Positions 19,989 through 22,283 of a DNA stretch of 64,000 nt are shown here, piece by piece. The stretch comes from Candidatus Improbicoccus pseudotrichonymphae. Lineage in GTDB: Bacteria; Bacillota; Clostridia; Oscillospirales; Acutalibacteraceae. Each line of letters starts with the position of its first letter. Position 1 is the stretch's first letter. The notes beneath the pieces were generated by a model. The model was not told where the DNA came from and did no database searches. It was given only the letters and a program-made list of their open reading frames with translations. Made by a program: the position numbers and the translations under genes. The DNA lies in NCBI GenBank assembly GCA_036322855.1, contig AP027924.1, forward strand, positions 61,361 to 125,360, read 5' to 3'.

Positions 19989-20966
19989 TCAATAAATATG
20001 AATATCAATCTCGGATCTATATTTTTCTAATGCTAATGCCAATTCTTCAGATATCAAAAGATAATCGCCTCTTTCAGTTACACAAACTCTAATATTAGTT
20101 ACACGAAAATCAGGACCAGCTTCGTGCAATAGATCATGTGCATGACATCTAACATAGTTAGAATAGTCTTTTCCGGTGGATTCGCTTGGTTGTTTTTCTC
20201 CTAGTTCATAAACAAACTTAGAGTATTTATTTTCCAGTTCTCCCATTATTTTTTCTCTTATTATATCACTAGGAGGAGAAAAAAATAAAGCTCTTGCTAT
20301 GCCCATGGATTCTGCAACGGATGATTCAAATATATATAATCTGCCACCACGTCTACTAGATTTACCTAAATTTTCATAATACCCTCCTTTAGGATCTTTC
20401 TTATCTACTAATCTGCCTATATTACAAGTTTGGCGAGTTTTTCCACACATTTCGATTTGTCTAATTTCTGGTTTCTCTTTTGGTTCTTCTTCTTCTTCTT
20501 CTTCTTTTGGTTCTTCTTTTGGTTCTTCTTTTTTTATTTCTTCTTCTTCTTCTTCTTCTTTTATTTCTTCTTCTTCTTTTTTTGGTTTTGCCTTTCTAGG
20601 ACTAATTGCATCATATATAACTAAAATACCAACGCCTAAGACACTAATGCCAGCAATAGTTTTAGCTAAACTTGAAAGCTCTTCAGATTTATCAACCGTA
20701 TCGTCCTTTTTACTTTCATCTCCATTTTCATTTTTGTCGTTTTCTTTAACATTACTTTTATCTTCCGATACTTTAACGTTATCTTCGCATTTCGTTGTTT
20801 CAACAGTTTTCTTGCTGCTATCTACAAGTCGATCATCAGACCCAACAGCCCCAACAAAAGACTGACAACACATAATAACAGCTAAAATAGAAGATATTAT
20901 TTTATTGTTTTTATTAATCTTCTTGCTATTTTTATTTTCACCTATCCCATTGCTTTCTTTTTTCAT
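19989..20966 (-). CDS. 5'-module family member A: signal peptide, acidic spacer, TM helix, E/K-rich tract, C-terminal domain type 1
   Basis: N-terminus MKKESNGIGENKNSKKINKNNKIISSILAVIMCCQSFVGA is shared by all family members. C-terminal domain is related to member D (TCNIGRLV, YSKFVY, AGPDFR, SEEL). Confidence 0.75.
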   Translation of the reverse strand: MKKESNGIGENKNSKKINKNNKIISSILAVIMCCQSFVGAVGSDDRLVDSSKKTVETTKCEDNVKVSEDKSNVKENDKNENGDESKKDDTVDKSEELSSLAKTIAGISVLGVGILVIYDAISPRKAKPKKEEEEIKEEEEEEEIKKEEPKEEPKEEEEEEEPKEKPEIRQIEMCGKTRQTCNIGRLVDKKDPKGGYYENLGKSSRRGGRLYIFESSVAESMGIARALFFSPPSDIIREKIMGELENKYSKFVYELGEKQPSESTGKDYSNYVRCHAHDLLHEAGPDFRVTNIRVCVTERGDYLLISEELALALEKYRSEIDIHIY

Positions 20967-21060
20967 AGAGAGATCTCCCTGAGAGACCTCTCTCTCTCTC
21001 TCTCTCTCTCTCTCTCGAATTGAGAGAATTCATGAGAGATTTAATAAACTTATTTTTCAT
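20938..21060 (-). CDS. leader mini-ORF of member A (40 codons, +1 register, overlaps main ORF by 29 nt)
   Basis: AGGAGG SD plus ATG; MKNKFIKSLMNSLNS(RE)n..GLSGRSLYEKRKQWDR*. Confidence 0.5.
   Translation of the reverse strand: MKNKFIKSLMNSLNSRERERERERGLSGRSLYEKRKQWDR
20989..21016 (-). repeat. dinucleotide SSR (GA)14 inside leader A
   Basis: Counted directly: 28 nt of TC on the + strand. Confidence 0.95.
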
Positions 21061-21112
21061 AACCTTTCCTCCTGATATTAAAATATAAATCAGCGAAAAC
21101 ACTGATAAATTA

Positions 21113-21140
21113 ATTATAGCATTTTGAATTTTGCTGTCAA
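21113..21140 (-). promoter_or_regulatory. sigma-70-type promoter of member A (TTGACA-16-TGCTATAAT)
   Basis: Reverse complement reads TTGACAGCAAAATTCAAAATGCTATAAT; the same motif is upstream of B, D, E and F. Confidence 0.6.
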
Positions 21141-21150
21141 ACAGAATTAT

Positions 21151-21267
21151 GCGAAGCATTTTAATGCGACACTATTTAGCGGTGACTTTGTCTCCGCAAG
21201 AGACAATCTAGAGCCGCATGTTTCTTTGGGTTTCACCCGTTTCTTTGCGTCAAAGAAATGGGTGAAA
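21151..21267 (+). other. conserved three-hairpin element, copy 1
   Basis: GCATT/AATGC; GCGGT..TTGTCTC-loop-GAGACAA..GCCGC; TTTCACCCGTTTCTTTG-cgt-CAAAGAAATGGGTGAAA. Confidence 0.6.
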
Positions 21268-21354
21268 AAGAAATAAACTTTAATATGTTTAATTTAAATA
21301 CTTAGAGATAAAAATTTTATAAATATTATTTTTAAAATTATTTTTATTATCTTA

Positions 21355-21382
21355 TTGACAGCAAAATTCAAAATGCTATAAT
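21355..21382 (+). promoter_or_regulatory. sigma-70-type promoter of member B (TTGACA-16-TGCTATAAT)
   Basis: TTGACA at 21355-21360, extended -10 TGCTATAAT ending at 21382. Confidence 0.6.
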
Positions 21383-21434
21383 TAATTTATCAGTATTTTT
21401 GCTGATTCATATTTTAAAATCAGGAGGTAAAATT

Positions 21435-22283
21435 ATGAAAAATAGCTTCATAAAATCTCTCATGAATTCTCTCAATTCGAGAGAGAGAGAGAGAGAGAGG
21501 TCTCTCAGGGGTTTCTTTATGAAAAAAGAAAGCAATGGAATAGGTGAAAATAAAAATAGCAAGAAGATTAGTAAAAATAATAAGATAATTTCTTCTATTT
21601 TAGCTGTTGTTATGTGTTGTCAGTCTTTGGTTGGGGCTGTCGATCTTCCTTTGACTGTGGATGATAGTAAATTTGTTGAGCCTGTGGGCAAAGATTTGGA
21701 AAATGATAATGATAATTTAGAAAGTAGTAGCGAAGACGAAAATAATTATAAAGACGGCGAAGGCGAAAATAGCGAAGCAGAAAATAACGAAAACAAAAAT
21801 ATAAACAATAGTAAGTCATTTTCAATTTTAGCAAAGGTCTGTATTGGTGTTGGTTCTGGCGTCGGTTTTATTGTTGCTGCTGTCGTCGCAGACTACCTTA
21901 TTGGTAATAGATATACTGTCGAAATTTCTAACTCAAGATATCCGATTTTTGAAATTGATTTTGAAAACCTTGGTTTTTATTCAAAAAAAGATCCATTTGA
22001 TAAAAAATATTATTTGACCATGAATTTCAAAAATTCAGGAAAAATAAAATTTGTGAGAACAATATCGGATTACTATTCTCGCCCAATTAGGTTTGTAACA
22101 AATTCAAATGTTGGAAATGTCAGATCTGATGAAATCGATAAATTTAGTGATTATTCTAAATTTATTATTGATATTTTTAAATGTAAAGAACATGATGGTT
22201 CTAACGCCTTAAAAAAATATTTTAGTAAAAAAATGTTGAAATTAATGCAAAAGGTATCGAGTCATATATTCATTATTTGCTGA
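21435..22283 (+). CDS. 5'-module family member B (leader fused in frame); C-terminal domain type 2
   Basis: MKNSFIKSLMNSLNSRERERERSLRGFFMKKESNGIGENKNSKKISKNNKIISSILAVVMCCQSLVGA..; acidic/N-rich spacer, TM helix (VCIGVGSGVGFIVAAVVA). Confidence 0.7.
   Translation: MKNSFIKSLMNSLNSRERERERSLRGFFMKKESNGIGENKNSKKISKNNKIISSILAVVMCCQSLVGAVDLPLTVDDSKFVEPVGKDLENDNDNLESSSEDENNYKDGEGENSEAENNENKNINNSKSFSILAKVCIGVGSGVGFIVAAVVADYLIGNRYTVEISNSRYPIFEIDFENLGFYSKKDPFDKKYYLTMNFKNSGKIKFVRTISDYYSRPIRFVTNSNVGNVRSDEIDKFSDYSKFIIDIFKCKEHDGSNALKKYFSKKMLKLMQKVSSHIFIIC
21479..21498 (+). repeat. dinucleotide SSR (GA)10 inside leader B
   Basis: Counted directly. Confidence 0.95.

Follow-up and report, generated by a model that had tools for sequence, protein, structure and literature searches.

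In a 64-kb stretch of the genome of Candidatus Improbicoccus pseudotrichonymphae CfP3-15 (contig AP027924.1, positions 61,361 to 125,360; the whole of this stretch is referred to below as the window), six paralogous genes, A to F, were found by motif search to carry an uninterrupted purine repeat, (GA)9-17 or (AAGA)7, at an identical position in each. The repeat is preceded by a start codon with a strong ribosome-binding site (the upstream start) and followed by a second ATG, from which a signal peptide is read. This six-locus pattern is real and highly non-random. Its probable explanation is that each locus is one open reading frame (ORF) running from the upstream start and subject to slipped-strand phase variation, ON when both starts share a frame (register 0) and OFF in the two other registers (+1 and +2). 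The bacterium is a Clostridia endosymbiont with a 1.0-Mb genome (1,007,634 bp), which lives in the cytoplasm of the termite-gut flagellate Pseudotrichonympha grassii (PMC10579323).

The elements of the shared module follow one another in the same order: a TTGACA-16/17-TATAAT promoter, a short 5' untranslated region (UTR), a GGAGG sequence 6–7 nt from the upstream start (ATG, but GTG in D and E), 15 conserved leader codons (45 nt, MKN.FIKSLMNSLNS), the purine repeat, a linker of 23–26 nt and the second ATG. From the latter a putative Sec-type signal peptide is read (MKKE..NKKI.KNNKIISSILAV.MCCQSFVGA). The flanking module was approximately 80–90% identical between copies, and the similarity among the window copies stopped past the signal peptide. 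The promoters of A and B (TTGACA-16-TGnTATAAT) agreed with the consensus at 12 of 12 positions and had an extended −10, and the same motif was present upstream of C to F. The duplex energy of the Shine-Dalgarno (SD) sequence was −10.3 to −11.6 kcal/mol at the upstream start vs. −6.3 to −10.0 kcal/mol at the main ATG, the upstream one being stronger in every copy. This upheld the contrast between the two sites pointed out in a preliminary description of this DNA.

Gene A (CfP315_0071; 19989–21140, minus strand) has its promoter at 21140–21113, GGAGG at 21072–21068, the upstream ATG at 21060, (GA)14 at 21016–20989 and the main ATG at 20966. With 94 nt from start to ATG it is in register +1 (predicted OFF), the stop of the +1 frame ends at 20938, and the main ORF extends to 19989 and encodes a protein of 325 amino acids (aa) identical to family member P0030. 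Gene B (CfP315_0072; 21355–22429, plus strand) comprises a promoter at 21355–21382, GGAGG at 21423–21427, the upstream ATG at 21435, (GA)10 at 21479–21498 and the main ATG at 21519. Its start-to-ATG distance of 84 nt corresponds to register 0, the ORF ends at 22283 (282 aa) and the product is 100% identical to CfP315_0072, that is, P0001. The third copy, C (24348–25476, plus strand), shows a promoter at 24348–24376 with TATAAC as the −10 hexamer, GGAGG at 24417–24421, the upstream ATG at 24429, (GA)17 at 24473–24506 and the main ATG at 24529; it lies in register +1 (predicted OFF; 100 nt), with the +1-frame stop ending at 24551 and the main ORF continuing to 25476 (315 aa).

Also in register +1 (predicted OFF; 103 nt) is D (CfP315_0078; 30134–31167, minus strand), with its promoter at 31167–31139, GGAGG at 31118–31114, the upstream GTG at 31106, (AAGA)7(GA)2 at 31058–31027, the main ATG at 31003, a +1-frame stop ending at 30975 and a main ORF to 30134 (289 aa). 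The only copy in register +2 (83 nt) is E (31500–33240, plus strand). Its promoter is at 31500–31527, GGAGG at 31547–31551, the upstream GTG at 31559, (GA)9 at 31603–31620 and the main ATG at 31642, which is overlapped by the TGA of the upstream frame (ATGA, ending at 31645); the main ORF runs to 33240 and encodes 532 aa with coiled-coil repeats. Finally, F (CfP315_0081, P0032; 34879–36031, plus strand) has its promoter at 34879–34906, GGAGG at 34947–34951, the upstream ATG at 34958, (GA)9 at 35002–35019 and the internal ATG at 35042. It is in register 0 (predicted ON; 84 nt), and its ORF to 36031 (357 aa) has the C-terminal domain intact.

Within the 64 kb, the six module tracts were the only simple-sequence repeats (SSRs) of at least six dinucleotide or at least five tetranucleotide units. 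A search for (GA)9 gave 19 overlapping matches at five tracts vs. 0.00 expected from 100 dinucleotide-preserving shuffles. As in SSR contingency loci, the tracts are pure, are long enough to slip, have a unit that is not a multiple of three and sit between a start codon and the remaining ORF, so that a change of one unit shifts the frame; registers 0, +1 and +2 are all present. The sequence TCTCTC occurs on both sides of the tract (TCTCTC-AATTC-(GA)n-GG-TCTCTC), and each of the flanks can pair with the tract whatever the register. The copies in OFF registers (A, C, D and E) retain long intact ORFs of 289–532 aa.

A recount of the six tracts, A to F, gave the unit numbers of the preliminary description, (GA)14, (GA)10, (GA)17, (AAGA)7, (GA)9 and (GA)9. 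Subtracting the 45-nt leader from the measured start-to-ATG distances returned the reported values from the Ser (or Leu) codon to the main ATG (49, 39, 55, 58, 38 and 39 nt), and recomputing the registers again placed B and F in 0, A, C and D in +1 and E in +2. Its account of the consequences also held: register 0 adds an N-terminal extension of 28 aa, the +1 leaders end 29 nt into the main ORF and the TGA of E overlaps the ATG. The alignment of the copies confirmed that the linker of E is short of one A and that of B is 2 nt shorter.

In the explanation we favor, each locus would be a single gene, transcribed from a consensus sigma-70 promoter, and its product an effector-like protein that is secreted or anchored in the membrane. 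The upstream ATG or GTG would open the ORF, and the tract would belong to the 5' coding sequence, before the part that encodes the hydrophobic core of the signal peptide. Slippage during replication would add or remove units of 2 or 4 nt; in one of the three registers the ribosome would read on into the signal peptide and the effector domain (ON), and in the other two translation would stop after 28–43 codons (OFF). Transcription is probably constitutive, and the switching would be translational. The internal ATG may also initiate to some extent, which would make the OFF state leaky. The 10^2–10^3 symbionts of a host cell would express a shifting combinatorial subset of effectors.

A heritable and reversible switch at each locus had been proposed from the start. 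Its anatomical part stood, as a change of one SSR unit does shift the register, and could be extended genome-wide, and a reversible per-locus translational switch is a reasonable reading of it. We infer hypermutability, that is, a high slippage rate, as well as register 0 as the productive state and an adaptive role of the switching. In Haemophilus influenzae, the loss of polI destabilizes tetranucleotide tracts and the loss of mutS destabilizes dinucleotide tracts. Moreover, GA·TC mirror repeats can form triplex DNA. The CfP3-15 genome has no polA (PMC10579323), and this absence, together with the TCTCTC flanks, would favor tract instability.

Homology searches detected 49 proteins with the shared N-terminal module, every one of them from the CfP3-15 genome. 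In frame from the upstream Met through an (RE)n, (RK)n or mixed repeat into MKKE were 21 of these proteins, 25 were annotated from MKKE and three had no repeat; for the approximately 45 loci outside the window, the registers were read from the annotated N-termini only. Further searches added 10 fragments or divergent members (listed as P0001–P0059). The window copies C, E and G (a seventh member, described below) were absent from the database matches, so the family comprises at least about 55 members. Truncated or fragmentary members are P0050–P0053, P0055, P0056, P0059, B and G. A profile search based on the N-terminal alignment was dominated by low-complexity candidates and added only four new fragments, and a search with the signal peptide alone gave no matches.

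The members that depart from the common plan bear on the position of the start. P0048, P0049 and P0052 have no repeat and begin at the upstream Met (MKNKFIKSLM-RKEK...). P0057, also repeat-less, joins MKNKFIKSLMN straight to the membrane segment, and an internal Met is missing from P0031 and from the divergent P0058 (MSSLNSREVVSTKKEN...). These repeat-less members and those without an internal Met argue that translation starts upstream, and that leader, tract and linker constitute the n-region of the signal peptide. The promoter and the strong SD likewise belong to the upstream start, and the name "leader mini-ORF" given to this segment in the preliminary description is probably a misnomer.

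All three phases of the tract relative to the linker occur among the in-frame copies (..RE-VSQGDLS-M, ..R-GLSGDLS-M and ..R-SLRGFF-M), with compensation by the length of the linker. The tract lengths deduced from the 17 pure-RE in-frame proteins were 6–16 units, and those in the window were 9–17. The use of all three phases, the compensating linkers and the spread of 6–16 units between flanks that are 80–90% identical therefore indicate that registers have changed many times. The anatomy of the loci, their registers, the module they share and the diversity of tract length among paralogs were observed directly. The pattern is as expected of a fast-slipping tract, judged by comparison of paralogs and not of populations. 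Scans of genome and metagenome contig collections for the leader motif produced nine matches, all of them by chance and without a GA tract.

When the N-terminal module was removed, the remainders formed at least five unrelated clusters and many singletons, and in-frame and out-of-frame members shared clusters. The kinds of cargo were Rab/Ras GTPases, RabGAP-TBC proteins, coiled coils and an orphan alpha/beta domain; Pfam detected Ras/Rab domains in 7 of 51 members and RabGAP-TBC in 2 of 51. The genome encodes 18 small GTPases, mostly of the Rab family (PMC10579323). Since the cargo domains belong to at least five unrelated clusters, the module is a portable unit placed on diverse, partly eukaryote-derived cargo. 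The cargo met most often is a C-terminal domain of approximately 150 aa, present in A (19992–20441), B, D and F. AlphaFold gave a confident predicted model for this orphan domain (predicted local distance difference test, pLDDT, 87.9; predicted template modeling score, pTM, 0.84), for which a fold search of the PDB found no match (best E 0.44, TM 0.18). An exhaustive profile search with the same domain against 1.84 billion representatives returned 20 proteins, and every one that was traced comes from the CfP3-15 genome.

The predicted signal peptide (KKISKNNK-IISSILAVxMCCQSFVGA|V) is near-invariant in 51 members and has the features of a Sec-type one, namely a positive n-region, a hydrophobic core and an AXA-like site; a hydrophobic segment was detected in nearly all family members. 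A lipoprotein signal is unlikely, because Met precedes the Cys and the SignalP calls in the genome paper are of the Sec type. Most members have a second hydrophobic segment approximately 60–80 aa past the signal peptide, with the cargo domain after it. The topology expected from this segment would leave the cargo, including Rab, on the bacterial cytoplasmic side, unless the segment inserts in a host membrane after secretion.

Several observations weigh against a two-state switch with translation from the upstream start. The in-frame fraction (21/46, 0.46) did not differ significantly from the neutral expectation of 1/3 (p = 0.086). Gene B is in frame at the tract yet frameshifted near 22265–22280, its conserved C-terminal end (..NFRLIDGL..PLELADKI..) continuing in another frame to 22429; it is probably a truncated gene or a pseudogene, or else the product of an assembly error. 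P0050 is truncated as well. The n-region of a fused precursor would be at least 50 aa long (leader extension of 26–46 aa). SignalP reads a limited N-terminal window, which may alone explain "not detected" calls on such precursors. In the genome paper, SignalP 6 called Sec for forms starting at MKKE (approximately CfP3-15_0591 and 0852) and "not detected" for leader-fused Rab genes (approximately CfP3-15_0235, 0282 and 0581), these correspondences being based on an approximate mapping of accessions (PMC10579323). Five of the six copies retain, ahead of the internal ATG, a GGAG-type SD with a duplex energy of −7.4 to −10 kcal/mol. Finally, the 15 leader codons showed no clear third-position bias, with 2/3/4 variable columns by codon position, the values for the signal-peptide core being 6/3/10.

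A different, rather unlikely, explanation makes the internal ATG the true start and the upstream ORF a regulatory leader, with reinitiation in register +2, occlusion in +1 and an extended variant in 0. In the detailed form, which we regard as just as doubtful, the leader would end at AUGA in register +2 and give coupled expression (ON), would overrun the start by 29 nt in +1 (low or OFF) and would confer a different targeting in 0. In its favor, all six copies have the internal ATG, with GGGAGA or GGAGG ahead of it. In five of the six, a hairpin of 10–12 bp (AGAGAGGUCUCU-CAG-GGAGAUCUCUCU) is predicted to stop directly short of this AUG and to sequester its SD. One arm is made up of the final six bases of the tract and GUCUCU, the other is GGAGAUCUCUCU, and a ribosome coming from upstream would open the hairpin. 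The mean unpaired probability was 0.09–0.33 for the internal SD vs. 0.42–0.70 for the upstream one, a geometry typical of translational coupling. However, the hairpin energies were no better than those of dinucleotide-preserving shuffles (z −0.1 to −1.9; +1.3 in D), and the linker allele of B does not form the long hairpin. The ATGA overlap is found in one locus (E) and is automatic once a Lys codon (AAA) follows the ATG; any copy could reach it in register +2.

The Sec calls in short forms only, by the approximate mapping mentioned above, and the retention of only the internal start in G would also fit an internal start; against it stand the repeat-less paralogs that begin at the upstream Met, the two paralogs without an internal Met and the lack of a terminator between leader and main ORF. 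The three-state output proposed in the preliminary description keeps in its favor the SD of the internal ATG and the Sec calls, and otherwise draws on the geometry of E and on a non-significant hairpin. In its widest version, to which we give similarly little credence, a portable promoter-start-slippery repeat-restart-signal peptide module on approximately 50 cargo genes, including eukaryote-derived Rab GTPases and RabGAPs, would have three outputs (long fused, short reinitiated and off), and the endosymbionts in one protist cell would continually reshuffle their secreted effectors and the forms of these. Somewhat less probable still is that the tracts are a non-adaptive by-product of a GA-bearing module copied about 50 times in a decaying genome without polA, with drifting lengths, random registers, many pseudogenes and expression independent of register. 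An in-frame fraction compatible with 1/3, the fragments and truncated members, the frameshift of B and the loss of the module in G would agree with this, as would the 94–248 pseudogenes reported across three related endosymbiont genomes, CfP3-15 included, and the lack of detection by reverse transcription polymerase chain reaction for two of the three small-GTPase-type genes (Rho, Roc and Rab) tested in CfP3-15 (PMC10579323). By contrast, five of the tracts are perfectly uninterrupted at 9–17 units and the sixth is a pure tetranucleotide array, whereas neutral tracts normally gain interruptions; the OFF copies have intact ORFs of 289–532 aa and the promoters are still full consensus. Even under this explanation, the tracts would mechanically switch expression. 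Some of the members are in decay.

It is highly improbable that the tract lengths and registers are artefacts of phi29 amplification or long-read assembly and that the true tracts are uniformly in frame. The assembly derives from one host cell, whose DNA was amplified twice with phi29 and read with MiSeq and MinION (PMC10579323). Dinucleotide tracts are error-prone in both steps, and any single tract could be off by one unit. Nevertheless, the window loci differ by up to eight units, far beyond consensus error, the register also depends on indels in the linker, outside the tract, and the 21 in-frame copies have many different lengths. An alternative code of the Mollicutes type (TGA = Trp), considered for the AT-richness, was rejected, since table 11 yields long intact ORFs and the organism belongs to the Clostridia. 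The genome paper nowhere mentions repeats, frameshifts or phase variation (PMC10579323).

Upstream of the modules, a GC-richer element of approximately 130 nt was observed at 21150–21285 (plus strand), with copies at 34671–34806 and at 31168–31273 plus 31399–31437 and a degenerate one at 24217–24274. It contains two strong hairpins (GCGGYGACTTTGTCTC..GAGACAA..GCCGC and TTTCACCC..GGGTGAAA) and travels with the module. In B, C, E and F it lies upstream of the promoter at a distance of approximately 90 nt, and A and D share it in a head-to-head arrangement. In the D/E pair it is split by an insertion of approximately 125 nt. Searches of Rfam gave no match for the leader region or this element, only weak eukaryotic microRNA and small nucleolar RNA matches far below the gathering scores, and no covariation was found among the three near-identical copies of the element. 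The 5' UTR can form two mutually exclusive hairpins (21389–21432 in B, 21106–21063 on the minus strand in A, with equivalents in C and F). One of them, ATCAG..CTGAT, is terminator-like and is followed by a T-rich run; the other, CTGATT..AATCAG, abuts the SD. D and E, the same two copies that start with GTG, lack this hairpin segment through a deletion.

Two pairs of loci are arranged head-to-head as inverted repeats. The arms of A/B (20845–21140 vs. 21355–21640) are 296 nt long, 89.5% identical and 214 bp apart, and those of D/E are at 30882–31118 and 31568–31754. Recombination between the arms could swap tracts, and hence registers, within A/B or D/E. An invertible-promoter switch for these pairs was rejected, because each gene has its own complete promoter.

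The seventh family member in the window, G (46784–48330, minus strand; main ATG at 48178; ORF to 46784, 464 aa), has lost the promoter, SD and leader; a decayed tract (GAAAGAGAGAAA) is all that is left of the module, and only the internal start is kept. An unrelated small ORF with its own putative signal peptide (MIIKKYLILFLSLFCMSIAFA..) starts near 48325 and enters the +1 frame across the main ATG at 48178. In the acidic region after the signal peptide, in-frame tandem repeats were observed in A (20476–20578, (TTC)n), C (24759–24800, (CAA)6(ATG)8), E (31835–31922, 9 nt × 9.8 at 100% identity) and G (47609–47985, 9 nt × 42), and E also has coiled-coil repeats of 42/105/201 nt at 32340–32861. 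The in-frame tandem repeats would add size variation of the exposed part to any on/off switching.

The genome paper described the organism as a putative energy parasite with an ATP/ADP translocase (ISME J 2023, PMC10579323), and this TLC-type gene falls in the window at 4014–5507. It is followed by a large serine recombinase (10884–12584) and a pemK RNA motif (13070–13190). Fragments of prophage tail/baseplate genes (DUF859, Prophage_tail and Tail_P2_I) are found at 14143–19513 and 26692–29873. The family members are interspersed among these prophage remnants, and a tRNA-Glu gene (19508–19582) adjoins.

The kind of system described here is well known, and what is new is the setting, a family of approximately 50 effector-like genes on one module in an obligate protist endosymbiont. 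In the opa genes of Neisseria, (CTCTT)n lies in the leader-peptide coding region of 11–12 paralogs. The two systems are alike in being multigene families in which each copy would have an independent coding-region SSR switch in the signal sequence, with all copies transcribed and a combinatorial expression. In opa, however, the unit is a pentamer and the copies form one homologous adhesin family of an extracellular mucosal pathogen under antibody pressure, whereas the cargo domains found here are unrelated. The Vlp, Vmc and Vsa proteins of Mycoplasma are lipoproteins, with the SSR in the promoter or spacer (poly-A or TA) or with switching by site-specific inversion. They share with the present family a conserved 5' module of promoter and signal peptide on many paralogs, one SSR per gene and in-frame tandem repeats, which in those families vary the surface-exposed part (such repeats were observed here in A, E and G), but the SSR here is in the coding region and the products are probably not lipoproteins.

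The oipA gene of Helicobacter pylori has CT dinucleotide repeats in the 5' region coding for the signal peptide, and its ON state is recognized by an intact signal-peptide motif downstream (PMC10564699). As in oipA (and also hopZ, sabA and sabB), a pyrimidine/purine dinucleotide tract here is part of the 5' coding sequence and precedes the end of the signal peptide, and the frame would set ON or OFF (PMC10564699). The H. pylori loci are, however, single outer-membrane-protein genes of a Gram-negative pathogen, in contrast to a family of approximately 50 genes in an intracellular Clostridia symbiont, with a conserved restart ATG and SD after the tract, TCTCTC on both flanks and eukaryote-like Rab cargo. 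The nearest precedent for the leader idea is another Firmicute locus, pil1 of Streptococcus gallolyticus, in which GCAGA repeats in a leader-peptide ORF act together with transcription attenuation, the SSR shifting the point at which the ribosome of the upstream ORF stops relative to a hairpin (PMC3894217). That hairpin is an intrinsic terminator and the control is transcriptional. Attenuation of this type was ruled out for the present loci, since the hairpin before the main AUG is followed by AUGAAAAAAG with no U-run and a terminator scan found none there. A separate leader in every register was also ruled out, since leader and main ORF are fused in register 0 (B, F and another 19 paralogs). 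Chlamydia trachomatis offers a precedent for switching by SSRs in a bacterium that is obligately intracellular; it reportedly involves homopolymers in scattered genes, with no shared module or large effector family (PMC4514472).

Contingency loci are regarded as characteristic of pathogens and commensals exposed to adaptive immunity or to phage. The architecture described here governs approximately 5% of the genes of a 1.0-Mb symbiont, including most of its candidate eukaryote-like host-manipulating effectors. For the annotation, the 25 genes that begin at the internal Met and the 21 that begin at the upstream Met differ in register but not in kind. If the tracts switch, effector repertoires taken from a consensus genome would mislead, with half of the family looking off or devoid of a signal peptide by register. 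The symbiont cells inside one host cell would then not be equivalent, and this would raise the question of which fluctuating selection acts within the cytoplasm of a protist.

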